Part shown: piece after piece, positions 1,341 to 45,355 of the stretch | Layout: the number at the start of each line of letters is the position of its first letter | Position numbering within the stretch: the stretch's first letter is position 1 | Assembly: GCA_963717085.1 (NCBI GenBank) | Contig: CAVQVM010000021.1 | Location: forward strand, 116,560 to 180,559 | From: an uncultured bacterium | GTDB lineage: Bacteria; Actinomycetota; Acidimicrobiia; Acidimicrobiales; VFJN01 | DNA: 64,000 nucleotides | Reading direction: 5' to 3' | Translations under genes and position numbers: made by a program | Notes under the pieces: generated by a model | The model's input: only the letters and a program-made list of their open reading frames with translations | What the model was told of the DNA's origin: nothing | Database searches by the model: none

Positions 1341-1486
1341 TCCTCAGAGGCCGAGCGGATAGGCCCGAAAGTGGGCACGGAACCGTACGGGATTTGCAGT
1401 GTCAGCCCAAGCCACACAGCTCGGCCTCCGCCAGCGCTGACCACGGTAAGCCCAGACGACGTGCATATCAGCTCAGGTCCTCAGAC
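1341..1486 (-). repeat. MITE-like palindromic intergenic repeat, copy 1 (inverted relative to copies 2 and 3)
   Basis: It aligns by eye along its whole length with the reverse complement of 55361-55506: ggccgagcggataggc...gtacgggatttgcag...cacagctcggcctcc...cagcgctgaccacggt.agcccagacgacgtgc.tatc.gctcag. The terminal inverted repeats contain GAGCGGATAGGC. Confidence 0.8.
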
Positions 1487-2308
1487 GCGCGAGCGGTCAC
1501 CGTGGGCCGCGGTGGCACCGTCGGCCCGGTACCCATCGTCGCCGGTGCCCCGGGCCGGCGGTGCGCCCGCACGGCCCGCGGAACCACGGAACCCACTGCG
1601 CACGCGCTCGCCCGGCGGCGAGTACTTGAGGATGCACCAGACCGCCCGGACGCCGTCGCGCCACCCGATCTTCTTGCCCTCCGCGTAGGTGCGCCCGCGG
1701 TAGCTGATCCCCACCTCGTACACCCGCCATTCCGGGTGGGCGGCGACCTTGGCCGTGACCTCGGGCTCGACACCGAACCGATCCTCCTCGAGGTCAATGG
1801 CCTGGATGACCTCGCGGCGGAACACCTTGTAGCAGGTCTCCATATCGGTGAGGTTCAGGTTGGTGAAGACGTTGGACAGGGTGGTGAGGAACCGGTTCCC
1901 CACCGAGTGCCAGAAGTAGAGCACCCGGTGCGGATGGCTGGAGATGAACCGTGACCCGAAGACGACGTCGGCGTCGTCGCCGAGAAGGGGCTGGACCAGC
2001 GCCCCGTACTCGCCGGGGTCGTACTCGAGGTCGGCATCCTGGACGATCACCAGCGGCGCGGTCGCTTCGGCGAATCCCCGACGCAGCGCGGCCCCCTTGC
2101 CCTGGTTGTAGGGCTGGAGCACCACACGCACGCGGGGTTCGGCGAGGCCCGCCAGGACATCGCGCGTGCCGTCGGTGGACCCGTCGTCGACGATGATGAC
2201 CTCGACCGTCCACGGCGAGGCGAGCACCCGCGCCACTACGGCCGCCACCGTGTCGCGCTCGTTGTAGCAGGGGATGACGACCGAGAGGCAGGCCTGGGTG
2301 TCGGGCAT
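1481..2308 (-). CDS. Glycosyltransferase family 2, DPM1/polyprenol-phosphate sugar synthase-like
   Basis: [28 protein letters not shown] (DxD) and a GT-A fold pattern. The start is the ATG at 2306-2308 ([11 protein letters not shown]). Confidence 0.8.
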
Positions 2309-2487
2309 GCGCGGGTCCTTTGCTGCGGGATCGACGGGGCATCCTACGGGCGGACAGGCTTCGTCGCCCGGCATCAGCTTCCCTAGGCTGCAAACGTGAG
2401 CGAGCGTCAGCGAGCGAACCAGGGACACAGTGCCCTAGCGCCGCGAAGCGGCGATGCGGTCAGTGGCGGCGCCCGGAGGGCGCGCCA

Positions 2488-4638
<2,151 letters not shown>

Positions 4639-4651: not shown

Positions 4652-6412
4652 CTAGGACTGGTCGTCGCCGACGAACCCGACCGACGACCCGCTCGGTCCC
4701 CCGCTGGGCGGGGGCGGATCGAGCGCGAAGACCCGGGTGGTGCGGCCCTCGACCCTCACCTCGTGCACCAGGCGCAGCCCGGGCATCCGGTCGGTGGTCC
4801 GGAGCGGCGCCAGCTGGGGACGCAACCGCACGGCCGTGTACCAGTCGACGACCAGGTAGCCGGCGCCGTAGTGGCGGGCGTAGCGCAGGATCTGGTCGAC
4901 GCTGGCGTAGGGGATCGCCATGGTCTGCCGCTCGGCGTAGTAGTCGACGACCATGCTGCGCGTCATGACGCGGTCGCCGGGCCGGGTGTTGGCGGCGATC
5001 CACTCGCCGGCCGCGCGCTGGTCGCCGTGCTCCGACGGGTGCCACCAACCGGCGGCCTCGCTGTGGAACGCCTGCACCGACGACAGTGCCAGCAGCGCTA
5101 CCACCGCGAGCATCACGGGCCGCCGCCAGGCGACCGACAGCGCCGCGATCGCGGCACCGACGAGCGGCGTCGCGAGCGCCACAGCGACGATGAGGTAGCG
5201 GGGTTGGACGAAGAACGCCAGCGCGGTCGCCACCGGCAACGCACCGACTGCCAGCAACAGGCGGACCACCCCCGACCGGCGGTGGCGCCAGGCACCGAAC
5301 GCCGCCAGCCCCCACAGGGGGAGGGGCAGCAACAGCCACGAGAGCCGCTGGTCGGTGACCGGGTTGGTGATGGACGCGACCAGCTCGCCAGCGTTGGTGC
5401 GGACGATGCCGAGGTAGCCGGCCGGGTCTTCGCGGGCCAGCGTCGCCAACGACGATCGCCCGGCGGCGAAGTGGAGGCCCGTCTCGTCCAGCGCGTACAG
5501 CACGGAGTCGCGCCGCTCACGGTCCGCCCGCGCCACGGCGTCCCAGGCCTCGATCGAGGCATCCTGGGTCTTGGCGCTGAGCTGCCACTGGCCGGTGTTG
5601 TCGTGCAGGTACATCGCGTACGGCACGATGCACACGACGACCGGCAGCAAGAAGACCGCCAGCAATGGCGCGCCCGCCCGGAGGCCCCGGACGTCGAGCC
5701 TCCGCAGCCGGGCGGCCTGGCCCGGGGGACGCACCGCGAGGACGAGCACCGCGATCCCGAGCGGGACCGCCATGAACAGTCCCTCGGGCCTGGTCAGGTA
5801 CGCGAGCCCGACCATGACACCCGCGCCGAACACGCGCCATGCGCGGGCGCGTGCCACATGGTCGACCGCGGACACCACCAACCAGACCGCGCCGACGACC
5901 AGGAGCGTGTACTCCGCCTCCGAGCCCGCACCGCGGTTGACGATGGTCGTCGACAGGCCCGGTCCGAGGGCGGCTACCCAGGCGGTGGCGATGCCGGCGG
6001 TGTGGCCTCCGATCCGCCGACCCAGCAGCGCCAGCGGGACGATGAGTGCCGTGCTCGACAGGCACGTCAGGACCACGGTGCCGGTGTGGGGGTCAGACGC
6101 CACCTGGCTCGCGAGCCCGAGCAGGAACGGCACGAACGGCGGGAAGTGCAGCTCAGGGCTGCCGTCACGCTGGTAGCCGTCGCCCTCGACCAGGGACACG
6201 CCAGAGCGCAGGTAGGCGGTCTCGTCGGTGGCGGGTGCGTCGTCGGTCAGGCCGATCGCGACGCGGAGGGCGAACCCGACCACCACGGCCGCGACGACCA
6301 TGAGCACGAACCGCGTCCGCCGTGACGGGGTCGGGGCAGGAGAAACGCTGCCGGTCGATGGGGGGGAGGCCGCCGGCGACGTATCGCCCGGCGATGCGAC
6401 GGTGGTGGCCAT
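4652..6412 (-). CDS. GT-C fold membrane glycosyltransferase (PMT_2/ArnT/GT39-like)
   Basis: It has many predicted TM helices, and the first-loop motif TDETAYLRSG resembles the DE..Y motif of ArnT/PMT enzymes. There is a large C-terminal soluble part. I chose the start MATTVASPG because the upstream gene ends at 6427. Confidence 0.65.
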   Translation of the reverse strand: MATTVASPGDTSPAASPPSTGSVSPAPTPSRRTRFVLMVVAAVVVGFALRVAIGLTDDAPATDETAYLRSGVSLVEGDGYQRDGSPELHFPPFVPFLLGLASQVASDPHTGTVVLTCLSSTALIVPLALLGRRIGGHTAGIATAWVAALGPGLSTTIVNRGAGSEAEYTLLVVGAVWLVVSAVDHVARARAWRVFGAGVMVGLAYLTRPEGLFMAVPLGIAVLVLAVRPPGQAARLRRLDVRGLRAGAPLLAVFLLPVVVCIVPYAMYLHDNTGQWQLSAKTQDASIEAWDAVARADRERRDSVLYALDETGLHFAAGRSSLATLAREDPAGYLGIVRTNAGELVASITNPVTDQRLSWLLLPLPLWGLAAFGAWRHRRSGVVRLLLAVGALPVATALAFFVQPRYLIVAVALATPLVGAAIAALSVAWRRPVMLAVVALLALSSVQAFHSEAAGWWHPSEHGDQRAAGEWIAANTRPGDRVMTRSMVVDYYAERQTMAIPYASVDQILRYARHYGAGYLVVDWYTAVRLRPQLAPLRTTDRMPGLRLVHEVRVEGRTTRVFALDPPPPSGGPSGSSVGFVGDDQS

Positions 6413-6426
6413 CCCCCGCCTCGGCG

Positions 6427-7098
6427 TTACGCCTGCCGGGCCGGGACGACGGGAACCGCCGCTGGCATGGCGTCCGGGCCGCGGCCATTGCGGCGGGCAC
6501 CGCGTGGCCGCGCCTCGATCATCGTCCACGGGAAAGGCGTGCTCACGCTCAGAACTTCGAGCTGTGAACCCACGAGCTCGGCGAACCCCCGCCGCGACCA
6601 GTGCTGAACGTGGCCCGGCGTGTTGCCGAGGTCGGAAAGGTACTTACCGCGAGCCATGTTGGCGACTCGCCAGATTGGCTCGCGGGGCACGGATAGCACC
6701 AGTCGGTCGCGACTGACGCGCACGAGTTCGGCGAGTGCGGTGGGAGGGTCGTCCACGTGCTCCAGCACCTCGATGGCCATCACGAGGTCGAACGTCAGGG
6801 CTGGGAACGGCAGCCGGACGGTGTCGGCGAAGGCGCCGACGAACCCGCGGTGGCGCCAACCGGAGGCGAGTGCTTCGTCATGCAGGTCAATGCCCACGAT
6901 GTGCGCATCCGGGTAGAGGGACCGCAGCTTGGAGCTGATCTCGCCCTCACCCACCCCGACCTCCAGCACGGTCGCCGGGTGCTCACGGGGAAGCACATCC
7001 GCCAGCGCGCCGAAGAAGCCCGTCATGAGGCGACGCTCGATTGGGTTCCTCGACCGGTACTTGTCGTAGGTGTTGCCCGTCGGGACCCTGGTGGACAC
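6427..7098 (-). CDS. Class I SAM-dependent methyltransferase
   Basis: Motif I VLEVGVGEG; later FDLVMAIEVLEHVDDP. The start is uncertain (GTG at 7096-7098 giving VSTRVPTGNTYDKYRSRNP, or ATG at 7170). Confidence 0.75.
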   Translation of the reverse strand: MSTRVPTGNTYDKYRSRNPIERRLMTGFFGALADVLPREHPATVLEVGVGEGEISSKLRSLYPDAHIVGIDLHDEALASGWRHRGFVGAFADTVRLPFPALTFDLVMAIEVLEHVDDPPTALAELVRVSRDRLVLSVPREPIWRVANMARGKYLSDLGNTPGHVQHWSRRGFAELVGSQLEVLSVSTPFPWTMIEARPRGARRNGRGPDAMPAAVPVVPARQA

Positions 7099-7341
7099 GT
7101 GGTAGCTCCGGAACTCGCTTGATTTCGGGCAGCCGCCCCAGGCGACGTGTGGCGAACCGGGTTGGCCCACAACGCCGCCGCGCGACCGGCGACACTAACA
7201 CTGCCCCGATCGCAAGGCCGAGGCTGCGGGCGGGAGCCCAGTTTCACGCTCCCGACAAGTGCTGTTCCTCGTGCCGTCACCCTCGTCGACACGCGTCCCC
7301 TGGGCATCGAGTTCCTCGCGTCGCCTTTAGACTCCGCGCTC

Positions 7342-8346
7342 GTGACCGATCCGGAGCCGCTCGCGACGCGCCTTGTCGAGGGCGATCGGCGGGCGCTCGC
7401 CCGGTCGATCACGCTGGTCGAGTCGACACGCCCCGACCACCGGTCGGCAGCCGCCGCGCTCCTCGACACTGTGCTCGCCCATACCGGCGGCGCTATTCGC
7501 CTCGGCATCACCGGCACACCGGGCGCGGGCAAGTCGACACTCATCGAGGAGCTCGGCGGCAACCTCACCGCCGCGGGCCATCGAGTCGCAGTACTAGCGG
7601 TCGATCCGTCCAGTCGGCGTAGTGGTGGTTCGATCCTGGGCGACAAGACGCGCATGGAACGCCTTGCCCGCGATCCGCGTGCCTTCATCAGGCCATCGCC
7701 CTCAGGTGGGTCGGTCGGCGGCGTCGCCCGCCGCACCCGGGAGGCCGCGCTGCTGTGCGAGGCCGCTGGCTTCGATGTCATCGTCGTCGAGACCGTCGGG
7801 GTGGGACAGTCGGAGGTGGCGGTTGCGGACATGGTCGACTGTTTCTGCCTGGTCGTTGCGCCGGGCGGCGGCGATGAGCTACAGGGGATCAAGCGGGGGA
7901 TCATCGAGCTCGCCGATGTCGTCGTCGTCAACAAGGCCGACGGCGACCTGCTACCGGCGGCCCGACGAGCCATCGCCGACTACCGCCAGGCCGTCCACCT
8001 GCTGCGGCCCAAGCACGCCGGCTGGGAAGTGCCTGTGCTGGCCACATCGGCTCTCGAGGGCGCCGGGGTCGACGAAGCATGGGCTGCCGTGGAAAAGCTC
8101 GTTGCGCACCTCCGTGAGGACGACGCGCTCGACCGCCTCCGAGCCGGCCAGGCGGTGGCGTGGATGTGGGACGAGATCCGCGAACACCTCATGGATTCGT
8201 TCCGTCGGGATCCCGGGGTGGCGACGCGTTGGTCCGACGCCGAGGAGGCCGTCCGGGCCGGCCGGGTGTCCCCCGGCACCGTAGCCCGCCGCCTGCTCGA
8301 GGCCCATGGCGTCGCGCCAGGTGACCACAATGCGAGCGCCCAGTGA
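7342..8346 (+). CDS. meaB: Methylmalonyl-CoA mutase-associated GTPase MeaB (ArgK family)
   Basis: Walker A GTPGAGKST, VETVGVGQSE, NKADGD. The GTG start at 7342 gives about 334 aa, the typical MeaB length. Confidence 0.9.
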   Translation: MTDPEPLATRLVEGDRRALARSITLVESTRPDHRSAAAALLDTVLAHTGGAIRLGITGTPGAGKSTLIEELGGNLTAAGHRVAVLAVDPSSRRSGGSILGDKTRMERLARDPRAFIRPSPSGGSVGGVARRTREAALLCEAAGFDVIVVETVGVGQSEVAVADMVDCFCLVVAPGGGDELQGIKRGIIELADVVVVNKADGDLLPAARRAIADYRQAVHLLRPKHAGWEVPVLATSALEGAGVDEAWAAVEKLVAHLREDDALDRLRAGQAVAWMWDEIREHLMDSFRRDPGVATRWSDAEEAVRAGRVSPGTVARRLLEAHGVAPGDHNASAQ

Positions 8347-9287
8347 CAGACGGCCTCACAGCCAACCACAGCGGTCGCCTCGGCTCCGGCGTGCGAGCCG
8401 CAGTGCGGAGGGTCGCGAAACGTTCGTACCGCACGCTGGGGGCGGTCGGCCAGCGCTTCTTCGCTGACGACCCATTGCCCGCGTCCGCACTGCACCCCGA
8501 TCCGCTGACTCCTCCCTGGATGCCGTTCCCAGAACCGGGCGCCGGCCCCTCGCTGTGCAACATCTGCCGTTGGGAGGGCGACGCTTTCGGCGGCCGCCAA
8601 CACGTCGAGTTCTCGACCTGTCCGGCCTGCGGCAGCAATGGCCGGGACCGATTCCTGCACTGGTGCCTCCGCGAACGGATCGGGCTCCACGCGGCGCTGC
8701 GCGTGATCGAGTGCAGTCCCCGCCTCGGCCAGGCGTACCGCGAAGCCATGGCGACCTGGTTCTTCTATCGCACCAGCGACTACGACCTACGGGCCCATGC
8801 TGGCAACCTCCGACTCGACCTGCAGGCCATCGACCTGCCCGATGCGTGCATCGACGTCATGCTGTGCGCACACGTGCTCGAACACGTGCCCGATACCGAC
8901 AAGGCCCTGGCCGAGCTGCATCGGGTCATTGCCCCCGGGGGTCATCTGTTGCTGCAGGTACCCGTGCTCCAAGGCCACACCGCGCCACCGACGGAGCCGG
9001 AGTTCCACGGGGACAACACCCCGGTATTCTGGCGGTTCGGGTTCGACCTGACGGCCCGGCTGCGTGGACTGGGGTTCGTCACCGAGCTGTTGTGCACGGC
9101 CGAGCTCGCCGATGCGGTCGTGGCGGCGCAAAGTCCGTGGCACGAGTGGTCCGGTGAGTTCGATGTTCCCGACATCCTGGACGGCGCCATCATCGAGGAT
9201 CTCGTTGTGGTCGCCGATCGCACCACGTCTGCCCGGCTAGGGATCGATCCCAGCTACATGTACCTCACATGGGACTGCGCGGTGTGA
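8343..9287 (+). CDS. SAM-dependent methyltransferase (type 11-like) with an N-terminal Cys4 zinc-ribbon
   Basis: CNICRW...CPACG zinc ribbon; IDVMLCAHVLEHVPD, APGGHLLLQVP. A GTGA overlap with the meaB stop occurs at 8343-8346. High GC3 from 8343 supports the long form, with an alternative ATG at 8520. Confidence 0.7.
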   Translation: MTDGLTANHSGRLGSGVRAAVRRVAKRSYRTLGAVGQRFFADDPLPASALHPDPLTPPWMPFPEPGAGPSLCNICRWEGDAFGGRQHVEFSTCPACGSNGRDRFLHWCLRERIGLHAALRVIECSPRLGQAYREAMATWFFYRTSDYDLRAHAGNLRLDLQAIDLPDACIDVMLCAHVLEHVPDTDKALAELHRVIAPGGHLLLQVPVLQGHTAPPTEPEFHGDNTPVFWRFGFDLTARLRGLGFVTELLCTAELADAVVAAQSPWHEWSGEFDVPDILDGAIIEDLVVVADRTTSARLGIDPSYMYLTWDCAV

Positions 9288-9294
9288 TGGGGTA

Positions 9295-15510: not shown

Positions 15511-15513
15511 GGC

Positions 15514-35336: not shown

Positions 35337-36574
35337 GCCGGCTCCCCGCAGTTCTCGAGGTATGAGGCCAGTGCCAACGACATCCATCCCTGACACCATC
35401 GCAGCTCGCGGATCTTTGTACGAAAGGTCCGGCGCTTCTGGTAGTAGAACCAGCCACTCTTCGGGTCCCACATGTGGGCCAGGGTCCAGTCCAGCACGCG
35501 CCCCGCGACCTCGGCACCCTCGCCCCGATGCTTCTGTCGAAGCGAGAACGTGATGATCCCCTGGGCGCACCCATGGATGTCGAAGGGGTAGCGGCGATCG
35601 CTCATGAAGCGCGGGGCGCCATCGAGATCGAAGAGCCTCCGCTGATAGAAGTCGATACCTCGCTCGTACGCCTCATCGAACTCCGCGCTACCGGTCGCCA
35701 GGGCATGGACGAGGATGGCGTCGAGAATGAATCCGGTGTGGTAGTTGTCGTGCGTGATGCGGCTGGCTGACGGCGGCTCGGCGTAGAACCACGCGCCTTC
35801 GTCGGTCTGCTTGGAGACGACGTAACGGACCAGTCGTGTGCTCTCCTCCCTGAGCTTCTCGTCGCCATCGAGTGCCGCGAACCGCGCCGTGAGCGCCCCG
35901 ACCAGCGCCGACACATCCATCACGATCCAATCGATCGATTCGTCGGGTACGTAACTCACGCACCGGTGCCGGTCGTCCTCGAACAGCGTCTTGGGAGCGT
36001 CGAGCAGGAAGCGGACGGCGTCCGACGCTGCCTTCAGGTAGCGGCCGTCATCGAGGGTGTCGTACCCGTCGAGCAGTGCCTGGCCCACGAACGAGGTGAC
36101 AACCCGGTTGGGCAGGTTTCGAGGCGCGAAGAACCCGGCGTCCTGCCACGGGTACGGATAACCCCAGGCGAGCCCATCGAACCCGGCGGACGGGTTGGCG
36201 ACCAGCCAGTCGAGCAGCTCCCGGGCCGTCCGCGCGTCCTCCTGCGACCCGGTCATCCGATAGCGAGCGAGGTGGGCTCGGGCGAACAGCGACAGGCCCT
36301 TCGGGTTCCGGGCCTTGCGGACTCCGAGCAGGGGGCGGACGTGGATTGGTGACCGCATCACGAGCTGGATGGCGGCGAGCCGTCGCAACCTCGAACCACC
36401 CGCCAGTGTCTCCAGCCAGGGGGCGTTCAGCGCGTCGTGCTTCGAGTAGCCCTCGAAGTCGTCGCGTCGGGCCGTTTCGAGCACGCTTTCCAGCACGTCG
36501 CCATGGTGGGCGCGGACGCCGGCAAAGGTCATCGTCGGAGTGTTCTTCACCATGGCCGCGCCAAACCTCGCCAA
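35333..36574 (-). CDS. Hypothetical protein, probably (alpha/alpha)6-toroid-like polysaccharide-modifying enzyme
   Basis: It is a 413-aa soluble protein with aromatic-rich repeats (GLAWGYPYPWQ, THDNYHTGFILDAI, LRWCQGWMSLAL). It lies inside the asnB-DUF354 operon. I recognise no catalytic family with confidence. Confidence 0.45.
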   Translation of the reverse strand: MARFGAAMVKNTPTMTFAGVRAHHGDVLESVLETARRDDFEGYSKHDALNAPWLETLAGGSRLRRLAAIQLVMRSPIHVRPLLGVRKARNPKGLSLFARAHLARYRMTGSQEDARTARELLDWLVANPSAGFDGLAWGYPYPWQDAGFFAPRNLPNRVVTSFVGQALLDGYDTLDDGRYLKAASDAVRFLLDAPKTLFEDDRHRCVSYVPDESIDWIVMDVSALVGALTARFAALDGDEKLREESTRLVRYVVSKQTDEGAWFYAEPPSASRITHDNYHTGFILDAILVHALATGSAEFDEAYERGIDFYQRRLFDLDGAPRFMSDRRYPFDIHGCAQGIITFSLRQKHRGEGAEVAGRVLDWTLAHMWDPKSGWFYYQKRRTFRTKIRELRWCQGWMSLALASYLENCGEPA

Positions 36575-36758: not shown

Positions 36759-37688
36759 TCATGACGTTGTCACCTGCGGGGCCTGCGCGGCCTCGGGCGC
36801 TGAGCTAACGACGTGACGCCGCACCGTCACCTTGTTGCCGATGGTGGCCAGCAGCTCGGTGCCGATGGTGAGCAGTCGCAGAGCGAGCGACGCCGCGAGC
36901 AACTGCGCCGTGCCGACCCCGGGAAGGAGACCGATGAGCACGGCCTCGCGGACGCCGACACCGGCCGGGATCGGTAGGGCTATGAAGCCGACCGCCCAGC
37001 TGATCGCGAAGGCGCAGAAGACGGTCCCGGGGTTCGCCCCGGTATGGAGCGAGCCCAGCAGGATCGCATACGCGCCGCAGAGCGAGCCGATGGTGACGAG
37101 GGCCCACGCGTAGAACACGACGATGTCCCGCTGTGTCGGCAGCTGATCAGAGCCGGGAATCCGGTGCATGACACGTCGGGCGAGGTCGAGGACCCGCGCC
37201 ATGAGCGTACGGCGGAGCAGGATCGGCGTCAGCAGACCGAGCAGGGCGAGCACGCGGATCCAGTCGGCGAGACCGGCGTCCAAGGCGAGCCCGCTCCCCA
37301 ACGTCATGCAGGCCACGACCGCGCAAACCGCAGACACCGGGAAGGCGACGGCGGCCCGCTTGAGCGGGACGCCGACGGTGGGGGCGAGTCCCAGCTGGCT
37401 GGCCGCCTGGGCGAAGCCACCGACAGGTAGGTACTTCGTGAGCTGCGCAAGATAGAAGGTCCCCCGTACGGCGGCGCGGGAGGCCCGGGCGTCCAGCAGG
37501 TCGCTGAACAGCGCGACCCAGGCTCGTGCGGACGCGACGATCGCAACCAGCGCGAGGACGCCCGCGACCACCCACGCCGGGGCAGACGGCAGGACCTGGT
37601 CCTGCGCTGTGTCCACCGTGCGGGAAACGGCGAAGGCGATCCCGACCAGCCCGGCCAGGAGGATGATGGTCTGTAGACGGCGGCTCAT
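36759..37688 (-). CDS. Flippase-like membrane protein (LPG_synthase_TM/UPF0104 family)
   Basis: About 8 TM helices and the C-terminal motif ALPIPAGVGVREAVLIGLL typical of this family. Confidence 0.65.
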   Translation of the reverse strand: MSRRLQTIILLAGLVGIAFAVSRTVDTAQDQVLPSAPAWVVAGVLALVAIVASARAWVALFSDLLDARASRAAVRGTFYLAQLTKYLPVGGFAQAASQLGLAPTVGVPLKRAAVAFPVSAVCAVVACMTLGSGLALDAGLADWIRVLALLGLLTPILLRRTLMARVLDLARRVMHRIPGSDQLPTQRDIVVFYAWALVTIGSLCGAYAILLGSLHTGANPGTVFCAFAISWAVGFIALPIPAGVGVREAVLIGLLPGVGTAQLLAASLALRLLTIGTELLATIGNKVTVRRHVVSSAPEAAQAPQVTTS

Positions 37689-37913: not shown

Positions 37914-38741
37914 ATGACACAACTGGACGCAACAATGAGGAAGCGGTTGCAATTGGAAGCAATCCGTCAGCAGATGCGTGATGTCGTCCCAAAGTCGGTG
38001 CGAATGCGCCTGATAAAGGGAATAAACCGCGCCAGCGGAAACTACCTCTCCCGGCCATTGTACGGTAAGGCAACGTACAACCAGGACGGTCTGGCCACAG
38101 CCCATAGCGCGCCCTTCATGGACGATCCCCGCTTCAAGGAAGCCTACGACACCGGAAGGTCGACTGGTTCTTGGACCTTCGGCGACCTGCATTGGCGAGC
38201 GCACGTCGTATGCTGGGCCGCCGAGCGTGGGGCATCTTTGACCGGAGATTTCGTTGAGTGTGGCGTGAATCGCGGCGGCTACGCCCTGACTGTCATCAAG
38301 TACTTGGGATTCGAGACGTTGCCAAAGACCTTCTACCTTCTCGACACCTATGAAGGCTTGGCCGAACGCTACATCTCGCCCGAAGAGAAGGCTCGAGGGG
38401 TCCGTGTGGGTGAGTATGAGCCGTGCTATGAGGCCGTGGTCAGGACCTTCAGCCCCTACACCAACGTCAAGATCATCAGAGGTACGGTGCCCGACACGCT
38501 CCCGTCGGCCGAGACCGACAGCGTCGCCTTCCTGTCGCTGGACATGAACACGCGCGATCCGGAGATCGCAGCGGCCGAACACTTCTGGGAGAGACTGACC
38601 AGTGGGGCCGCGATCGTGCTCGATGACTACGGCTGGCGGAAGCACCGGGAACAGCAGCGAGCCTTCGATGCCTTCGCCGAGAGGCGGGGGGTGCAGGTGC
38701 TCGCTCTGCCGACCGGTCAAGGCCTCATCCTCAAGCCGTGA
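37914..38741 (+). CDS. TylF/MycF/NovP-type sugar O-methyltransferase
   Basis: GDFVECGVNRGG, LLDTYEGL, IIRGTVPDTLP, LSLDMN, IVLDDYG. GC is lower than in the surrounding DNA. The alternative start is the ATG at 37935. Confidence 0.8.
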   Translation: MTQLDATMRKRLQLEAIRQQMRDVVPKSVRMRLIKGINRASGNYLSRPLYGKATYNQDGLATAHSAPFMDDPRFKEAYDTGRSTGSWTFGDLHWRAHVVCWAAERGASLTGDFVECGVNRGGYALTVIKYLGFETLPKTFYLLDTYEGLAERYISPEEKARGVRVGEYEPCYEAVVRTFSPYTNVKIIRGTVPDTLPSAETDSVAFLSLDMNTRDPEIAAAEHFWERLTSGAAIVLDDYGWRKHREQQRAFDAFAERRGVQVLALPTGQGLILKP

Positions 38742-38825: not shown

Positions 38826-39383
38826 ATGAACGACGTTGACGGGCTGCACGTCCGGGTACCGCTGCTGACGGCCATCGGCGACTATCTCGTCGAGTTCTTC
38901 ATGGCGCTCACGCCGCACGATCCGATCTCCAACCGGATCAAGCGCCTGCTGATGCGGTGGCGTGGTGCCGAGGTCGGTGCCCGGCCGAAGATCTGGAGGG
39001 ATGTGTGGGTGGACAACTACCGCAAGCTCAGCGTCGGGGCGGACGTGTCGATCGGCAAATCGGCGATGCTGGGCTGCATCGGTGGTGTCACCATCGGCGA
39101 CCGGGTGATGATCGCGCACGGCGCCCAGGTCCTCAGCGCCGGTCACCGGATCCCGGGCGCCGGCGATTCGATGCCGATGCGCTTCTCGGGGTTGGACGTG
39201 GCGCCGATCGCCATCGAGGACGACGCTTGGATCGGTGCCGGAGCTATCGTCCTGCCGGGCGTGACGGTGGGACGCGGAGCGGTGGTTGCGGCGGGGGCGG
39301 TCGTGACGAAGGACGTCGGGAGCTTTACGATCGTGGGTGGCGTGCCGAGCGTCGTCATCGGTTGCCGGAACGAGCAGGACTGA
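38826..39383 (+). CDS. Hexapeptide-repeat (LbH) O-acetyltransferase
   Basis: [13 protein letters not shown] and [35 protein letters not shown]. Confidence 0.85.
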
Positions 39384-39439: not shown

Positions 39440-40126
39440 ATGCCGTTAGTAGAGACCCACTACCACCGAGAGAAGGTCTACTGGGACGAGCGGGGCAGCG
39501 AGGACTACGCGACGCTGTCACCGTTTGACCGGGCGCGCATCGCCGCTTGGATCGACTGGCGGGGACATGGGCGCATCCTCGACGTGGGCGGCGGCGCCGG
39601 AATGGTCAGCCGCATCATCAAGGATCAGCCGGAGACCCGGGTGACGTGCGTCGACATCTCGGCCGAGATGCTCCGCCACGCCCCGGTTTCCGCCGTCCAG
39701 GCCGATGGGATCCATCTGCCGTTTCCGCCCGACACCTTCGACATGGTCGTGGCCGCTGCATTCCTTCACCATCTCCCGGATGCCGAGTCGAACGTCATGG
39801 CGGAATGCCACCGGGTTGCGGTTCCAGGCGGTCGTGTCGTTGGCTACGACCCGAATGGCTGGTGCCTGCAAAACCGCATCTTCATGGGCGATGGACCCCT
39901 TCGGCTCAAGCTCTTCGCACCCGACGAGCGACCAATAGTGCCCGAGAGCATCGCGACGAAGGCAATCGAACTTTCGTTCAAATCATTCGAGTATCAGCTG
40001 TTCACATTTCGAAACATGAAGAAGACACCGTTCGAGGTCGTGCAGCGTTACGTCATCAACCCGATGGCACAAGGTCCACTCAAGAAGTACCTCGACCGCT
40101 GGTTCCTCTGGCGAGCGACCAAATAG
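39440..40126 (+). CDS. Class I SAM-dependent methyltransferase (type 11)
   Basis: ILDVGGGAGMVS, FDMVVAAAFLHHLPD, VPGGRVVGYDPN. The ATG at 39440 is preceded by AGGAGG at 39423-39428. The 3' part is strongly AT-rich. Confidence 0.75.
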   Translation: MPLVETHYHREKVYWDERGSEDYATLSPFDRARIAAWIDWRGHGRILDVGGGAGMVSRIIKDQPETRVTCVDISAEMLRHAPVSAVQADGIHLPFPPDTFDMVVAAAFLHHLPDAESNVMAECHRVAVPGGRVVGYDPNGWCLQNRIFMGDGPLRLKLFAPDERPIVPESIATKAIELSFKSFEYQLFTFRNMKKTPFEVVQRYVINPMAQGPLKKYLDRWFLWRATK

Positions 40127-40154: not shown

Positions 40155-42356
40155 TTACTCGATCGGGGACTCGTCCTCGCCCGGCTCCGCCGCTGCGGTC
40201 AGGCGTTCACGAAACTCCTCCAGATCGACCGCCTCGCCGGTGCGAATGCTCTCTTGCCCTGCGAAGACGCAGAGCGTTGCGAGCGACGCCTGCTCCCAGG
40301 TGAGCAGCGTGTTCGCATCGCCACGGATCCCTGCCACGAACTGTGTCAGCTCTTCCTTGTGGCCCATGGAGGCGCCGAGGGCGACGCCGAGCTTGCGGAC
40401 TCGCTTGCCGTGGACCGAGAGGTGGGCGAAGTCGTCGAGTGCGACCACCTTTCCCTTGGCCAGAACGGTGATCCTCTCCTGCGGGTAGCCGACCGCCCCG
40501 CTCTCGTTGAACACGATGTTGGCGACGGCGCCATCGTAATGGATGGTCAAGGCGTAGTTGCACAGCGTGCGCAGGTCGTCAGGGGGATTCCCGAGCGCAC
40601 GAGCGTAGACCGACAGAGGCGGCCGGCCGATCAGGAGGTGGCACAGGTCGACGAAGTGCTCGCCCTCGCTGATCAGCCTCCCGCCCCCGTCGATCGGGTC
40701 CAGCGACCAGTGGTCCGGCGGCACGAAGGGTCGCGTGACCGTGTAGTCGACGGAGTCGATGGGACCGCCGACGAGCTCGCGCAGCCGCTGGACCATCGGC
40801 GAGTAGCGGCGGTTCAGCCCGACCGTGAGGAGCACGGGCTCGCCGTCCATGCGGCGGAGCAGATCACGAAAGTCCTCGAGGCGGGTCACCATCGGCTTCT
40901 CGACGAACACGGCCTTGTTCGCGTCGATCGCCTTGCAGATGTGCCCGTAGTGCTCCGGCTGGGTCGACCCGATGACGACCCCGTCGGTCCCCGCGTCCTC
41001 CAAGAGCTGGTCGACGTCGGTGGTGATCATCGCGGCGCCGACCTTCTCCCCGACGGTGGCGGCGTTCCGAGCCGTGGCCGAGGCGATCCCCCGGATCTCC
41101 ACGCCCGGCATCGCCCTCAGGTTCGGCAGGTGGGTGGCCAGCATGTGGTTCCCCAGTCCGACCAGGGCGATGCCCACCGCCCCGTCCCCCCGTGGTCGGG
41201 AATGGATGCGCTTCGTTCGGCTGCGGTCGGGCTCTTCGGGGCCATAGCGGATGAGCGCCGCGATCCCGGGGAGCTCGCGATTTCGGATGGCGTCGAAGGC
41301 GTCCTGGGCCTCGTCGAGGTCGTAGACGCGAGCGATCAGGGGCTCCAACGACACGGAGCCGGACGAGACGAGGCGCACGAACTCCGCCAGGTTGCGCTTC
41401 TCGGTCCAGCGCACGTAGCCGAACGGATAGTCGATCCGGCCCTTCTCGTAGCCCGTGTGGTAGCTGCCTGGGCCGTACGCCCTCGAGTAGCGCAGGTCGA
41501 TCTCGCGGTGGAGGAAGTTCTTGGGGTGGATGTCGAGACGTACGTAGCCGACGAGCACGACGCGCCCCTGGCGCCGGGTGATCTCCATCGACGAGTTGAT
41601 GATCTCGGATGAATCCGAGCTCGCGCACACGATCGTGGCATCGACTCCGTGCTTGTCGGTGAAGTCGCTGAGCCCCCGCTTCCAGTCGGGATCGCGAGGA
41701 TCGACCACCAGGGATGCTCCCGCCGCCCGGGCGAGCTCGTTCGCCCGGGGGTTGATGTCGATGCCGATCACCACGCAGCCTGCGGCCAGAGCGATCTGTG
41801 TGCACAGCTGGCCGACGAGCCCGAGGCCGTAGATGGCGACCGTCTCGCCGAACTGGAGGTCGGCGCGGCGCAGCGCCTGGATGGCGATTCCGCCCACGGT
41901 CACGAAGGCCGCATGCCGTAGATCGACGTCGTCGGGTACCGGCACGACGTGATTGATGACCGGGGCGGCGATCTCCGCATGGCCCGTTGCGGCGTAGGCG
42001 ACCGTTTGCCCGATCTTGAAACCCTCGACGCTGTCGCCGAGGGCGAGCACAGTACCGGCGCCGCTGTAGCCGACCTCGCGCGGTGTGACCATCTCGTGCC
42101 AGACGCGACGCACGGTCTGTGCCGGACCGGTCGAGAACACCGTCTGCTTCACGACGTTGCGCATCCACGGATCGGCGAGCGTCTGCTTGGCCAGCTCGAC
42201 CGGGGTCTTGGACAGCGTCGTCGTCTCGGTGCCCGAGCTGATCAAGGAGTAGTGCGTCTGCACGAGCACCTGGTCGGGACCGAGGTGCGGCTCGGGTAGG
42301 TCGATCACCTGAACACGACCTCGCCGATCGATCACCCGCCGGACGACTTGTTTCAT
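40155..42356 (-). CDS. Bi-domain oxidoreductase: N-terminal MDR zinc-type alcohol dehydrogenase fused to C-terminal Gfo/Idh/MocA oxidoreductase
   Basis: N-terminal half: VLVQTHYSLISSGTE, VAIYGLGLVGQL (Rossmann). C-terminal half: IALVGLGNHMLATHLP and KAVFVEKP, typical of Gfo/Idh/MocA. Confidence 0.8.
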   Translation of the reverse strand: MKQVVRRVIDRRGRVQVIDLPEPHLGPDQVLVQTHYSLISSGTETTTLSKTPVELAKQTLADPWMRNVVKQTVFSTGPAQTVRRVWHEMVTPREVGYSGAGTVLALGDSVEGFKIGQTVAYAATGHAEIAAPVINHVVPVPDDVDLRHAAFVTVGGIAIQALRRADLQFGETVAIYGLGLVGQLCTQIALAAGCVVIGIDINPRANELARAAGASLVVDPRDPDWKRGLSDFTDKHGVDATIVCASSDSSEIINSSMEITRRQGRVVLVGYVRLDIHPKNFLHREIDLRYSRAYGPGSYHTGYEKGRIDYPFGYVRWTEKRNLAEFVRLVSSGSVSLEPLIARVYDLDEAQDAFDAIRNRELPGIAALIRYGPEEPDRSRTKRIHSRPRGDGAVGIALVGLGNHMLATHLPNLRAMPGVEIRGIASATARNAATVGEKVGAAMITTDVDQLLEDAGTDGVVIGSTQPEHYGHICKAIDANKAVFVEKPMVTRLEDFRDLLRRMDGEPVLLTVGLNRRYSPMVQRLRELVGGPIDSVDYTVTRPFVPPDHWSLDPIDGGGRLISEGEHFVDLCHLLIGRPPLSVYARALGNPPDDLRTLCNYALTIHYDGAVANIVFNESGAVGYPQERITVLAKGKVVALDDFAHLSVHGKRVRKLGVALGASMGHKEELTQFVAGIRGDANTLLTWEQASLATLCVFAGQESIRTGEAVDLEEFRERLTAAAEPGEDESPIE
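42013..42116. repeat. 104-bp direct repeat, copy A (inside the oxidoreductase gene)
   Basis: atcttgaaaccctcgacg.tgtcgccgagggcgagcac.gtaccggcgccg.tgtagccgacctcgcgcggtgtgaccatctcgtgccagacgcgacgcacggt. It has 3 mismatches relative to 45349-45452. Confidence 0.9.
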
Positions 42357-42550
42357 TCTGCGAGTCCTTCGCTACAGGGTCTCACTCGACGACGCCGCGG
42401 TGAACCCCACGCACGCGTCACGTCTTGGGCAAGCGTCTGATCGTACTCCGGCGGTGCGACGCTCTTGCCAGTCACGCCCTGTCCACCACGATGTGCGAGA
42501 ATCTCCGGTTCCAGCCGGCTTTCGTTCGTGTGCCACACGAGAGGGGAACG

Positions 42551-45355
42551 ATGCGGCTCGTCATGACTGTGCTCGTTCGAGACGAGGCCGACGTCATCGA
42601 GGCGATGCTCGAGAGCCACTACGCACTCGGGGTCGACTTCGTGATCGCCACCGACCACCGCTCGGAAGATGGCACCACCGCAATCCTCGAGCGCTACCAG
42701 CGCCAAGGGCGTCTGCGCCTGATCCACGAACCCGACGACGTCCACCAACAAGCCCGCTGGGTCACACGCATGGCGCGCCTCGCGGCGGTCGACCACAACG
42801 CCGATTGGGTGATCAACGCCGACGCCGATGAGTGGTGGTGGCCCCGCGACGGCGACCTTGCCTCGACGTTCACGAGCCTGCCCGACGAGGTGACCGTGCT
42901 GGTGGCACAGCGCTACAACTTCGTGCTGCGGCCCGACGACGGTCAACCCTTCCACGAGCGGATGCAGTGGCGACGCACCGACTCCCTCACCCAAGACGGC
43001 GACCTCATGGCTGTCAAGGTCGCCCATCGCGCGAGCCCGGAGGTCGAGGTAGCGGTCGGGAACCACGCCGTGTCCGGTCTCGGGGGACGCATCCTGGACG
43101 ACGGCCGCATCGAGGTGCTGCACTTTCCGGTCCGGTCATGGGACCAGTACGAGCGCAAGATCCGGCTCGGGATGGTCGCTGTCGAGCACAACACCTCGTA
43201 CGGGCCTGAGGTCTTCTACCACTGGCGCCGCTCGTCGCGGCTGCTGCACGAGGGCAGGCTCGCCGAGGAGTGGGCGTCATGGGTCTACGACGACGATGCG
43301 CTCGCACGGGCCGTGGCCGCCGGCGAGGTCGTCGCCGATGATCGCGTGGCCGGCCTGCTCGCCACGCTGCCGGCGCCAGCGATCCTGGCTGTGACCCCGG
43401 GGCCGCCTGCGTCTAGCTTCTCCGGCATGCCATCGCCCGGACACGGCGTTCGGCGACTCGGCGCTGGGGTCAGCTACGCAGACGGCGCCGAAGACGACGT
43501 GCTCGCCGTCCTCAGGAAGGTCGAGGACACCTCGTCGGGCTCGGTCGAGCTCGCCGAGCACATCGTCGACTGGCCGACCTGCTACCACTTATCGCCCCAG
43601 CGCTCGAACCTGCTACGGCCCCTGAACATCACCTCGAGCCTGCGGGTACTCGACGTCGGGGCGGGATCGGGCGTGCTCACCCGCTACCTCGCCGAGCAGG
43701 GAGCGACGGTGGTCGCGCTCGAGGGGAACCCCCGGCGCGCCGACGCCGCGGCGGAGCGATGCCGCGATCTCGATCACGTCGACGTGATCGCTGGAACGCT
43801 CGAAGACCTCGATCCGGCCGAGCGGTTCGATCTCGTGCTCCTCGTCGGCGTGCTCGAGTACGCCGGTTCCGCCATCGGCGGTGGTGGCGGTGCCTCGGAG
43901 ATGCTGCGGGACGCTCGGTCGCACCTGAGCGAGGGTGGCGCCGTCGTCGTCGCCACCGAGAACCAGCTGGGGCTCAAGTACCTGCTCGGTGGCCGGGAGG
44001 ACCACCTGGGGGAGCCGTGGGTGGGCATCGACGGCTACCCCGGCCCGCCGGGTGTGCGCACCTGGACTCGCACTGCGCTACGGAGGCTCCTTGCCGAGGC
44101 GGGGCTCGACCGGCAGCATTGGCTCGCGCCGTTCCCGGACTACAAGCTCCCCACGGTCGTGCTCGACGAGCGGGTATACGCGCGGCCTGACGCAGCCGAG
44201 GTGATCGAGCAGCTGGTGCTCCATCCGGTGATGAGCCTGGATCAACCGCCGGTGCGGGGTGCGGACGGAATTGGCGCTCATCGCGTCTGGGCGGAGGCCG
44301 GGCTGGCGGCGGAGGTCGCCAACTCGTTCCTCGTCCTTGCCGGCACTGATGACACGTTCATCGCCAAGCTCGTCGACGACCGGGCGTTGGCGTGGCTCTA
44401 CGGCGGCAACCGTGTGCCGCCGTGGCGACGAGAACGGATGGTCACTGTCGATGGCGAGGTCGTCACGTTGGGCGACAACCAACCGCGGCGAGTCGGATGG
44501 CTCGGCCAGGATCCCGGCACGTCGCGGCCCTATCGGCGAGGCCGCACTTTGGCCCAGGACGCGATGGATGCCGTGCGTGCGCACGATCTCGATGCTCTGG
44601 CAACCACACTGCGACGCTGGCGCGCCGAGCTCGAGGCGAGAGCCGTGGAGATCGCCGTGGTACCGAGTGGTGCCCATCCCTTCCTGCTGCCCGATTCGAC
44701 GCGGGGACTTCCCGACGGTCACCTCGACGTCGGCCTGGCGAATTTCGTCGACACCGGGACCGAGCTTGCCTTCGTCGACGACGAGTGGCGCACCGAACAC
44801 CCGGTCGACGTGCGCCTCGCCGAGTACCGGGCGCTCTGGGTGCTGGCCCACGATGTCCTCGGCTCGGCGGTCGCGCACCCCTGGGGAGACGAGGCGACGG
44901 TCGACGACATCGTGGCTCAACTCGCATCGCTCGCCCGGGCCGAGTTCGACGAGTACATCTTCGACGCCTTCCAAGCGGCGGAGACCGAATTGCAGGGGCT
45001 CGTCGCAGGTGAACCGCCCGACCGCCTCACCACCGGTTGGCTCAACGGCGCCCTCCGCGCGGCCGACCTCAGTCCCTGGAGCCCGGCCGACGCGGACCTG
45101 CGACACCTGCACGACGAAGAGATCTCGCGGCTGCGCCGCGAGGTCGCCGCGTTGGGCACGGAGCGGACAGCGCTGCTGGAGCAACGGACGGAGCTCACCG
45201 GCCAGAACGAGCACTTCCAGGGGGTGATAGCGGCTAAGCAGGCGGAGGTCGACCGCCTGCGCACCCTCCGCGGCTTCGTGGGCCACCGGCTCCGGGCCAT
45301 CACCTGGCTGCGCCTGCTCGTCGGCCGCCTGCGGCCTGTCGAGCCCGTATCTTGA
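42551..45355 (+). CDS. Multidomain protein: N-terminal GT-A-like glycosyltransferase, class I SAM methyltransferase, kinase-like domain, coiled-coil and amphipathic tail (WbdD-like chain terminator fused to a GT)
   Basis: GT part: VMTVLVRDEADVIEAMLESH, INADADEWWWP. Methyltransferase motif I: VLDVGAGSGVL, VLLVGVLEYAG. Kinase-like: HLDVGLAN (HxDxxxxN) and FVDDEW. Coiled-coil: EEISRLRREVAALGTERTALLEQRTELTGQNEHFQGVIAAKQAEVDRLRTL. Tail: GHRLRAITWLRLLVGRL. The ATG at 42551 follows GAGAGGGGA. Confidence 0.7.
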   Translation: MRLVMTVLVRDEADVIEAMLESHYALGVDFVIATDHRSEDGTTAILERYQRQGRLRLIHEPDDVHQQARWVTRMARLAAVDHNADWVINADADEWWWPRDGDLASTFTSLPDEVTVLVAQRYNFVLRPDDGQPFHERMQWRRTDSLTQDGDLMAVKVAHRASPEVEVAVGNHAVSGLGGRILDDGRIEVLHFPVRSWDQYERKIRLGMVAVEHNTSYGPEVFYHWRRSSRLLHEGRLAEEWASWVYDDDALARAVAAGEVVADDRVAGLLATLPAPAILAVTPGPPASSFSGMPSPGHGVRRLGAGVSYADGAEDDVLAVLRKVEDTSSGSVELAEHIVDWPTCYHLSPQRSNLLRPLNITSSLRVLDVGAGSGVLTRYLAEQGATVVALEGNPRRADAAAERCRDLDHVDVIAGTLEDLDPAERFDLVLLVGVLEYAGSAIGGGGGASEMLRDARSHLSEGGAVVVATENQLGLKYLLGGREDHLGEPWVGIDGYPGPPGVRTWTRTALRRLLAEAGLDRQHWLAPFPDYKLPTVVLDERVYARPDAAEVIEQLVLHPVMSLDQPPVRGADGIGAHRVWAEAGLAAEVANSFLVLAGTDDTFIAKLVDDRALAWLYGGNRVPPWRRERMVTVDGEVVTLGDNQPRRVGWLGQDPGTSRPYRRGRTLAQDAMDAVRAHDLDALATTLRRWRAELEARAVEIAVVPSGAHPFLLPDSTRGLPDGHLDVGLANFVDTGTELAFVDDEWRTEHPVDVRLAEYRALWVLAHDVLGSAVAHPWGDEATVDDIVAQLASLARAEFDEYIFDAFQAAETELQGLVAGEPPDRLTTGWLNGALRAADLSPWSPADADLRHLHDEEISRLRREVAALGTERTALLEQRTELTGQNEHFQGVIAAKQAEVDRLRTLRGFVGHRLRAITWLRLLVGRLRPVEPVS

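Follow-up and report, generated by a model that had tools for sequence, protein, structure and literature searches.

The 64-kb stretch of DNA analysed here (the window) comes from an uncultured soil or rhizosphere Acidimicrobiales bacterium and holds, between positions 1481 and 45355, an island of envelope-glycan genes with eleven methyltransferase (MT) domains, a Wzm/Wzt-type ABC exporter and a candidate chain terminator, g32. Nearly every module of this island carries an MT of its own, and the high MT count arises for that reason, not from one pathway needing eleven such enzymes. On balance, we regard the interval as a hypervariable site at which separately inherited modules have been stacked around an ABC-transporter-dependent polysaccharide pathway, rather than as one pathway. 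An initial annotation of this DNA had assigned the whole 44 kb to a single pathway leading to one heavily O-methylated polymer. Its view of an unusual envelope-glycan locus, with envelope-glycan genes and many MTs, holds, and the single pathway does not, since related loci reveal a composite and the MT of g32 is more likely to make a cap.

Genes of the window, whose GC content is about 70%, were called by means of third-position GC, and their products were numbered g01 to g44 from left to right. All 44 were scanned against Pfam, and 20 of them, namely the ten stand-alone MTs and ten other genes, against NCBIfam, in which no family scored above its curated cutoff. Rfam and tRNA scans of the 64 kb returned nothing. 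The nearest named relatives of the window are metagenome-assembled genomes (MAGs) of Acidimicrobiales/Acidimicrobiia, and one contig from an ENA metagenome (L001) is 99.8% identical to it in nucleotide sequence. Related loci, designated by L numbers, were compared with the window by tblastn, with all window proteins serving as queries.

Methyltransferases and the composite nature of the island

The eleven MT domains in about 44 kb counted in the initial annotation were recovered, ten by Pfam and one by profile alignment, and all ten stand-alone genes lay where it had placed them. Significant Pfam matches to class I MT or TylF families were obtained for nine of these ten genes and for an internal domain of g32. 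The tenth gene, g08, gave sub-threshold Pfam matches (E 0.008), and its residues 334-459 aligned in hhalign to an MT profile with a probability of 97% and an E value of 7.6e-11, with an FkbM-like motif I (LDLGANDG). Its homologues are 463-470 aa long, which fits the start codon originally chosen, and both NCBI and JGI name them class I S-adenosylmethionine (SAM) MTs. The gene classes reported to be interleaved with the MTs, namely glycosyltransferases (GTs) of the GT2, GT4 and DUF354 types, Wzm/Wzt, GT-C proteins, sulfatase-family proteins, AsnB, an acetyltransferase and an oxidoreductase, were all found by Pfam.

An iterative MT hidden Markov model (HMM), which does not cover two TylF/MT24-type genes of the interval, gave nine matches in 1481-45355. 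The background rate, taken from 76 Wzt-centred loci of other organisms (1.15 Mb), was 0.20 per 10 kb, so that 0.87 matches would be expected (Poisson P ~4e-7), and in no background locus of 15 kb or longer did the count exceed two. The enrichment is real: MT density in the interval is about ten times that of the 76 other loci, a contrast somewhat inflated by the seeding of the HMM with window sequences. The MTs also keep their glycan reading, as no NCBIfam equivalog gave any of the ten stand-alone genes a non-glycan function. Transmembrane segments and signal peptides are absent from all MTs in a transmembrane scan; methylation is therefore placed on the cytoplasmic side, where the MTs could act on nucleotide sugars, on lipid-linked donors or on the chain as it grows.

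The MTs are distributed over the modules of the island. Cassette D with its accessories holds up to four, the g11-g12 pair two, and one each is found in the g08-g10 trio, in the g04-g05 GT-C pair, beside MeaB (g07), in the g16-g18 operon and inside g32. The interval also contains a housekeeping methylmalonyl-CoA mutase (g03) and MeaB (g06), both of which had been missed, and gene coordinates give about ten transcription units on both strands. On the left, the island is flanked by the mutase and MeaB, and on the right by MoeZ, a MurJ-like protein and Sir2.

Four relatives (L003, L007, L085 and L169) have flanks in common and different sets of modules. The compact L085, whose g32 is 60% identical, consists of mutase, MeaB, g07, g32, g15, g13, g14, Wzm, Wzt, one sulfatase-like gene and one GT-C gene, with only two MT domains around the transporter core. 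L003, with housekeeping genes 87-89% identical, is without 8343-20331 (g07-g14), 21513-26944 (g16-g18) and 29072-30757 (g21) and retains g22-g30. In L169, where g08 is 86% identical, g07-g14 are present and the mutase adjoins MeaB; g04-g05 are therefore an insertion in the window, and g04 is present in L003 and absent from both L169 and L085, in which mutase and MeaB likewise adjoin. L007 shares the right flank (MoeZ, MurJ-like protein, Sir2, GH84) and carries another gene set beside Wzm/Wzt. The modules are not co-conserved across these Acidimicrobiales neighbourhoods, and the locus is to that extent the mosaic which the initial annotation had named as the alternative to its own proposal.

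The exporter genes have diverged faster than their surroundings. Identity to the L003 counterparts is 63% for Wzm and 75% for Wzt, compared with 86-89% for neighbouring genes; such divergence would be expected if transporter specificity tracks an altered polymer or cap. GC content is 0.64-0.69 across most of 20001-44000, with a single 2-kb bin (24001-26000) at 0.715, and 0.70-0.74 in the flank at 44-60 kb. Together, the fast divergence of Wzm/Wzt and the dip in GC point to diversifying selection or horizontal exchange acting on a surface-glycan island.

The exporter and the candidate terminator g32

The adjacent Wzm and Wzt genes overlap by 4 nt. PDB matches of Wzt comprise Wzt, TarH/TagH and RfbE, with E values down to 3e-61, and nearly its full length (residues 6-353) aligns at E 3e-61 to the A. 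aeolicus Wzt that bears a carbohydrate-binding module (CBM; 8dku/7k2t). Pfam places the Wzt_C domain at residues 254-385.

In g32, a GT, an MT, a kinase-like domain, a helix and a tail follow one another (Table 1). The MT domain is matched by Pfam Methyltransf_23 (E 3e-14) and by many MT structures in Foldseek at E ~1e-9. AF2 models, with pLDDT of 88 and, for the isolated domain, 91, contain the MT domain, a two-lobed alpha/beta domain, an uninterrupted helix of 60 residues and the tail. Alignment of the family gives two invariant motifs, H-x-D-x4-N and D-x-E-W, which read HLDVGLAN (44720) and DDEW (44777) in g32 and whose spacing we take to match the catalytic loop and the metal-binding motif in kinases of the APH/choline-kinase type. 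Foldseek with the kinase-like domain alone retrieved almost only kinase folds (glucosamine kinase, ethanolamine kinase, APH(2'')/APH(3'), PknB, Bud32 and Rio1), the best at E 0.027 and with TM scores of at most 0.4. In the whole-model search, WbdD (4azs) stood at rank 48 (E 1.2e-7, 545 columns, rmsd 17.7), a match owed chiefly to the MT. Searches of PDB sequences and profiles in which g32 was the query yielded MT domains only, WbdD being absent from the phmmer and profile matches, and Pfam searches with the kinase-like domain of nine homologues at E up to 10 gave nothing relevant. From the models and motifs, the second domain is likely to have a kinase fold.

Homologues of g32 share the conserved MT and a C-terminal module of about 400 aa. 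A stand-alone form of about 640 aa is found in numerous Acidimicrobiia as well as in Holophagae and Thermoanaerobaculales, and the module is fused to a GT2 in Saccharothrix and to a GT4 in Caballeronia. In L082, L085 and L010, the homologue is an immediate neighbour of Wzm and of a Wzt that bears Wzt_C. The L082 locus (Candidatus Poriferisocius) is compact, with a stand-alone homologue 20 nt downstream of Wzt with Wzt_C, and would offer a simpler system for the terminator idea. This locus also encodes, at 4928-7924 and directly upstream of Wzm, a 998-aa GT2-WsaF fusion, with rml-type genes and an LCP ligase nearby.

Two characterised terminators are of similar construction. WbdD consists of MT, kinase and coiled coil (PMC3482155), and the K. 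pneumoniae O7 terminator, ORF6, joins an MT, a kinase that sequence annotation had not detected, a coiled coil and GT2 modules and makes a methyl-phosphate cap (PMC11231755). In the predicted layout of g32, as in WbdD, the MT would be followed by a kinase(-like) domain and then by a C-terminal helical region that may be a coiled coil. Moreover, the E. coli O9a and K. pneumoniae O3 systems have in common with the window ABC-transporter export, a Wzt with a C-terminal carbohydrate-binding module and the absence of a priming enzyme from the locus. However, no sequence homology between g32 and WbdD is detectable past the MT fold, the kinase-like domain of g32 is, weakly, closer to the APH/choline-kinase group than to WbdD with its Src-like fold, and g32 also bears an additional GT domain at its N-terminus and a short predicted helix of ~60 residues. 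The window also differs from O9a/O3 in its Gram-positive-type actinobacterial host and in having many more tailoring genes round the core.

The likeness to O7 ORF6, in which the kinase is AmiN/APH-like and the methyl-phosphate cap gates export (PMC11231755), would lie in the union of GT module(s), MT, a kinase missed by sequence searches and a coiled coil in one polypeptide. The order of domains is different, being MT, kinase, CBM, coiled coil, GT2, GT2 in ORF6 and GT, MT, kinase-like domain, helix in g32; no counterpart of the immunoglobulin-like CBM of ORF6 was seen in g32, which is known here from its sequence and a model. Because g32 has this WbdD/O7-like predicted layout and is paired with a Wzt that carries a putative cap-binding module, at least one MT of the island is probably a capping enzyme that makes the terminal cap, and the MT of g32 more likely serves this end than the formation of bulk methyl ethers. 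Cap gating in full, with g32 capping the chain end and Wzt reading the cap, is favoured, though narrowly.

No family of the WecA/MraY, WbaP, Wzy/ligase or nucleotide-sugar kind was found among the 44 window genes in Pfam scans, which gave no match to Glycos_transf_4 or Bac_transf, in agreement with the initial annotation. The gene for the WecA-type initiator normally lies outside the locus in systems that depend on an ABC transporter, as for E. coli O8/O9a, mycobacterial galactan and streptococcal GacO, and its absence from the window is for this reason ordinary. The idea that it marks a new initiation mechanism was rejected.

Tailoring modules and their possible targets

Cassette D comprises g31 and the operon g26-g25-g24-g23-g22, which encodes a protein without Pfam family, an MT, a DUF354 protein, AsnB and a second MT. 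Among 30 g26-centred metagenome loci, each of at least 11 kb, g26 was accompanied by g25 in every case, by g24 in 28, by g23 in 25, by g31 in 24 and by g22 in 22; in most of them g31 adjoins g26 in divergent orientation. The accessories g27 (6/30), g28 (3/30) and g30 (2/30) are less frequent, and g27-g30 occur mainly in close relatives of the window. Cassette D is an autonomous cassette that was probably recruited into the island.

Homologues of g26 number 1295, the top 120 being 69-93% identical, and almost all are annotated as 'hypothetical'; its weak matches are to GH88 (E 0.019) and the AGE family (E 0.14), and it is possibly an (alpha/alpha)6-barrel enzyme. Similarity of g24 to MurG (3s2u) is weak (E 1e-3), and the NCBIfam similarities of g31, to IolG, IolM and UDP-GlcNAc 3-dehydrogenase, all fall below cutoff. 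PDB searches with g26, g24 and g13 gave weak hints at most. A literature search on DUF354 yielded nothing usable, the term having mostly matched other DUF numbers. In L001, the DUF354 gene (3590-4626, corresponding to window 33494-34531) is split by a 1-nt indel into open reading frames of 241 and 103 aa, the result of either an assembly error or a strain-level frameshift.

The second conserved unit is the g08-g10 trio, in which an MT is combined with two sulfatase-like genes. It is found in L008, L168 and L169. In L168, an Acidimicrobiales MAG, the trio forms a stand-alone operon beside chaperonin and formate-dehydrogenase genes; in L008 it abuts Wzm/Wzt, and in L085 a single sulfatase-like gene abuts Wzt. 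The g09 and g10 proteins are 72.5% identical and have 5-6 N-terminal transmembrane segments and a sulfatase-fold domain, with the motifs HTGRSVP and SDHG, which we take to resemble those of EptA/MCR-1. The formylglycine motif [CS]xPxR was not found in either protein, which rules them out as true sulfatases. PDB matches of g10 include phosphonate monoester hydrolase, LtaP and LtaS. All this fits a prediction of both as phosphotransferases of the LtaS/EptA/GacH type, GacH being the streptococcal sulfatase-family phosphotransferase (10.1101/337519). As such they would pass a glycerol-phosphate or phosphoethanolamine group of a phospholipid on to a glycan.

Three GT-C proteins, g04 and g21 (both PMT_2) and g18 (YfhO), have 9-13 hydrophobic segments. 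By analogy with GacI/GacL decoration (10.1101/180810) and other three-component systems (PMC11127046), they could use lipid-linked donors outside the membrane. Candidate donor synthases are g02 and g15, whose best NCBIfam similarities are to AglJ, PpgS, dolichyl-phosphate hexose transferase, ArnC and PgfS, all far below cutoff; the two C-terminal transmembrane segments of g15 are typical of GtrB/CsbB-type enzymes.

The streptococcal gacA-L locus (GAC) and the Rgp/SCC/Epa loci resemble the window in Wzm/Wzt-type export, in their case of a wall polysaccharide (10.1101/337519, 10.1101/180810). In GAC, decoration would also be alike, in that the GT-C protein GacL uses a lipid-linked sugar made by the GT2 enzyme GacI and GacH is a membrane-anchored sulfatase-family phosphotransferase, and the initiator GacO is encoded elsewhere. 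Unlike the window, GAC loci have rml genes, no methyltransferases, no WbdD-like terminator and no Wzt CBM, whereas in the window there are three GT-C proteins, a pair of paralogous putative phosphotransferases and the cassette with AsnB and DUF354. The common polysaccharide antigen cluster of P. aeruginosa, which includes PA5455-PA5459, shares Wzm/Wzt export and stand-alone MTs and an acetyltransferase that flank GTs; methyl sugars have been reported in its product, and at least one of its MTs, PA5457 and PA5459, is needed for the polymer (PMC3560663). It differs in having two MTs only, without kinase or coiled coil, in belonging to a Gram-negative lipopolysaccharide and in lacking GT-C and LtaS-like modules.

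The composition of the interval matches no characterised locus, and K. pneumoniae O7 and the streptococcal GAC locus are closer comparators than MGLP/MMP and O8/O9a. The mycobacterial MGLP and MMP are cytoplasmic lipid-binding polysaccharides without an exporter, for which dedicated SAM MTs make O-methyl hexoses. An actinobacterial host and dedicated SAM MTs are common to them and the window, but the window has Wzm/Wzt and extracytoplasmic decoration enzymes in addition. Their synthesis relies on a GpgS-type initiator or on ManT together with MeT1/MeT3. The sole trace of the pathway is a sub-threshold similarity to the GpgS model, whose cutoff is 262 bits and on which g02 scores 49 and g15 22.

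Domain content, the spread of the modules over related loci and the position of the terminator module next to a Wzt with Wzt_C are observed. The biochemical steps that we infer, with the chemistry of the cap and a polymer target shared by all modules, would be as follows. The polymer would be built in the cytoplasm on a polyprenyl carrier, with its priming enzyme encoded elsewhere. Candidate backbone transferases are g13, g14 and g17, with g24 and the GT domain at the N-terminus of g32 as further possibilities. The cytoplasmic MTs would act before export, because SAM is available in the cytoplasm only. By adding a methyl or methyl-phosphate cap, g32 would end chain growth, and the carbohydrate-binding module of Wzt would recognise the capped end, upon which Wzm/Wzt would export the chain. 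Outside the membrane, g04, g18 and g21 would add sugars from lipid-linked donors made by the GtrB/PpgS-like g02 and g15, and g09 and g10 would add phospho-substituents, while cassette D would probably supply or tailor an amidated, methylated, acetylated sugar.

Several points weigh against this scheme. The kinase-like domain of g32 has no significant sequence or fold match in Pfam, PDB profiles or Foldseek. No MT reaches any curated family cutoff, so that no substrate is assignable, and the putative role of g02 and g15 as polyprenyl-phosphate-sugar synthases is drawn from similarities below cutoff. Pfam scans of the window gave no GtrA-type flippase, LCP ligase or priming enzyme. The link of cassette D and g08-g10 to the exported polymer is suggested by co-location only. 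Wzm/Wzt are missing from 28 of the 30 g26-centred loci, the two exceptions being close relatives of the window, and in L086, a contig of 642 kb, cassette D has pyrimidine-biosynthesis genes on one side, gmk/rpoZ/coaBC on the other and no transporter closer than 10 kb. Finally, contigs from two rhizosphere metatranscriptomes cover every module with 0-5 mismatches (at least 99% identity) and are compatible with expression of the whole island; they are unstranded and do not define operons, and their low, even depth could also be explained by DNA carry-over.

The loci in which cassette D stands apart from Wzm/Wzt, together with its placement in L086, favour a view that is possible, if doubtful, namely that the modules act on different molecules and the exported polymer is made by g13-g21 and g32 alone. 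The product of cassette D would then be a separate one, such as a glycolipid of the membrane, a small molecule or a modified sugar or cyclitol, g08-g10 would act on lipids or another wall component, and the richness in MTs would be a by-product of an island in which envelope functions accumulate. A GT2 of its own and an LPG_synthase_TM protein are often encoded close to the cassette, the two halves of g31 are most like the inositol dehydrogenases IolG and IolM, below cutoff, and g08-g10 can stand alone, as in L168. Against this, cassette D is nested between Wzm/g21 and g32, in L002, L003, L091 and L093 as well as in the window, and the trio in L008 and the sulfatase-like gene in L085 directly abut exporter genes; besides, glycan loci commonly recruit self-contained sugar-tailoring cassettes.

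It is unlikely that all 44 kb serve a single dedicated pathway whose roughly eleven MTs jointly yield one heavily O-methylated envelope glycopolymer of a new kind. The presence of mutase and MeaB inside the interval, the subsets held by relatives (two MT domains in L085, three blocks missing from L003), the autonomy of cassette D and g08-g10 elsewhere, the roughly ten transcription units on both strands and the resemblance of the g32 MT to a capping enzyme all oppose it, although the eleven domains are real, at about ten times the background density, and all cytoplasmic, near-identical RNA contigs extend over the whole region, and the order of g17-g31 is collinear in the close relatives L002, L091 and L093. 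Very improbable is a glycan on a surface or S-layer protein, as in Geobacillus, or protein O-glycosylation by GT-C enzymes, as with actinobacterial Pmt/Ppm: two GT-C proteins do match PMT_2/PMT families, g02 and g15 are most like AglJ of archaeal S-layer N-glycosylation, below cutoff, and the WsaF part of the L082 fusion belongs to an S-layer glycan rhamnosyltransferase family, but Pfam found no Wzy_C/WsaB-type O-oligosaccharyltransferase or S-layer gene in the window, the LCP (LytR_cpsA_psr) ligase beside the L082 locus points to peptidoglycan attachment, and PMT_2 also takes in ArnT- and GacL-type lipid/polysaccharide glycosyltransferases.

A bolder reading can be put forward, which we consider speculative and quite doubtful. 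In it, cassette D would be an undescribed pathway, widespread in soil Acidimicrobiales, that in this lineage has been plugged into a cap-gated exporter; its product would be an envelope component derived from a sugar or cyclitol, amidated and doubly methylated. The end product of the island would be a polymethylated, hydrophobic surface glycan without characterised counterpart, polymethylated and hydrophobic because nearly every other module has its own MT as well.

Gene map, flanking genes and biological meaning

Table 1. Genes of the island, domains of g32 and selected genes of the right flank (window coordinates; E values from Pfam; percentages are identities)
Gene or domain	Position	Strand	Assignment	Evidence	Context and occurrence
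g02	1481-2332	-	GT2	Glycos_transf_2, E 1.2e-36	conserved left flank; in L003, L169
g03	2488-4638	+	methylmalonyl-CoA mutase large subunit	MM_CoA_mutase, E 9e-240; B12-binding domain	housekeeping
g04	4652-6529	-	GT-C	PMT_2, E 4e-10; ~9 transmembrane segments	
g05	6427-7098	-	class I MT	Methyltransf_11, E 2e-15	paired with g04; homologue in L007 (66%) flanked by two GT-C genes
g06	7300-8346	+	MeaB GTPase	MeaB, E 3e-109	housekeeping
g07	8343-9287	+	class I MT	Methyltransf_11, E 1.7e-11	start overlaps MeaB stop by 4 nt; next to MeaB also in L085 (75%) and L169; absent from L003
g08	9295-10686	-	N-terminal domain of ~330 aa without assignment, then FkbM-like MT domain		heads g08-g10
g09	11086-13242	-	membrane-anchored alkaline-phosphatase superfamily, LtaS/EptA/GacH-like (predicted)	Sulfatase, E 5e-19	
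g10	13294-15510	-	paralogue of g09	Sulfatase, E 2e-19	
g11	15514-16506	-	Methyltransf_24-type MT	E 1.5e-10	in L169
g12	16531-17355	-	Methyltransf_9/23-type MT	E 3e-11	in L169
g13	17355-18914	-	GT4, candidate backbone enzyme	Glycos_transf_1, E 7e-15	in L085 (44%)
g14	18934-20331	-	GT2, candidate backbone enzyme	E 4e-17	in L085 (54%)
g15	20321-21403	-	GT2, two C-terminal transmembrane segments	E 6e-21	in L003 (86%), L085 (74%)
g16	21513-22490	+	class I MT	Methyltransf_23, E 2.7e-12	first in g16-g18 operon
g17	22497-24116	+	two GT2 domains, polymerase-like architecture	Pfam; best PDB match chondroitin polymerase K4CP, E 2e-17	
g18	24152-26944	+	GT-C	YfhO, E 2e-17; ~13 transmembrane segments	in L002, not in L003
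g19	26917-28119	-	Wzt ATPase	ABC_tran; Wzt_C, E 1.8e-24	
g20	28116-28931	-	Wzm permease	ABC2_membrane, E 2e-12	
g21	29078-30757	+	GT-C	PMT_2, E 2e-8	in L002, not in L003
g22	30773-31531	-	class I MT	Methyltransf_11, E 1e-28	cassette D core
g23	31536-33467	-	AsnB-type glutamine amidotransferase	Asn_synthase, E 8e-79; GATase_7	cassette D core
g24	33494-34531	-	DUF354, GT-B superfamily	DUF354, E 3e-13	cassette D core
g25	34536-35336	-	class I MT	Methyltransf_31, E 1e-23	cassette D core
g26	35333-36553	-	no Pfam family, highly conserved		cassette D core
g27	36759-37688	-	LPG_synthase_TM-like, flippase-like	E 1e-7, below gathering score; ~10 transmembrane segments	accessory to cassette D
g28	37914-38741	+	TylF-family sugar O-methyltransferase	TylF, E 1.4e-16; PDB matches MycF, NovP and related sugar O-MTs	accessory to cassette D
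g29	38826-39383	+	hexapeptide-repeat acetyltransferase	Hexapep_2, E 3e-14	accessory to cassette D
g30	39440-40126	+	class I MT	Methyltransf_11, E 1e-18	accessory to cassette D
g31	40155-42356	-	two-domain oxidoreductase	ADH_zinc_N; GFO/IDH/MocA	cassette D core
g32	42551-45355	+	candidate chain terminator		
g32, GT	~42572-43294		GT2_4/GT92-like GT		
g32, MT	~43607-44134		class I MT		
g32, kinase-like	44249-45091		kinase-like domain		
g32, C-terminus	45083-45262		60-residue helix		followed by short helices and basic amphipathic tail
	46963-48312		14-transmembrane MurJ/MOP-like membrane protein	weak match	conserved flank gene in L007
	49982-52138		GH84 beta-N-acetylglucosaminidase	N-terminal hydrophobic segment	
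	52705-55313		DrrA-like ABC ATPase, then 552-aa protein with 12 transmembrane segments	second protein without Pfam match	divergent MarR regulator upstream
	57019-57570		PduO-type adenosyltransferase		
	60047-63553		MetH	Pfam	

Beyond g32, the products of the MurJ-like and GH84 genes could be linked to flipping or turnover of envelope glycan, and the DrrA-like ATPase and its partner probably serve efflux or export independently of the island. Cobalamin-related genes are found around the island, namely the mutase, MeaB, the PduO-type adenosyltransferase and MetH, the last of which had been considered as rpoB by its length, an assignment ruled out by Pfam. MetH regenerates methionine, which feeds SAM. 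No cobalamin riboswitch was found in the Rfam scan of the window. A functional tie between these genes and the MTs was set aside, since they are conserved flank genes, and their position near the MTs is probably a coincidence of that kind.

Of the words sampled from a 7.6-kb stretch, a quarter or more was present in each of 20 public runs, whose sources were soil, sediment, rhizosphere, cave and others. Soil, rhizosphere and sediment harbour abundant Acidimicrobiia, and to our knowledge no envelope glycan of this class has been characterised; a literature search on the Acidimicrobiia cell wall found no chemical study of the envelope. Cap-gated ABC export of polysaccharide, as proposed for the core of the island, is already known in kind. 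What is new here is the lineage, the domain order of g32 and its divergent kinase-like domain, the pattern of one MT per module, cassette D and the g08-g10 trio.

The island offers a testable model of one surface polymer, in which the cap-gated ABC export of enterobacterial O-antigens is joined with the extracytoplasmic decoration logic of streptococcal wall polysaccharides. The six-gene cassette D and the trio of an MT and two phosphotransferases, both conserved and uncharacterised, are separately testable units. If the model is true, the family of MT-kinase terminators would extend into Gram-positive-type actinobacteria. The shuffling of modules at one site looks like serotype-style variation of the surface, and as such it bears on the pressure exerted by phages and predators in soil.

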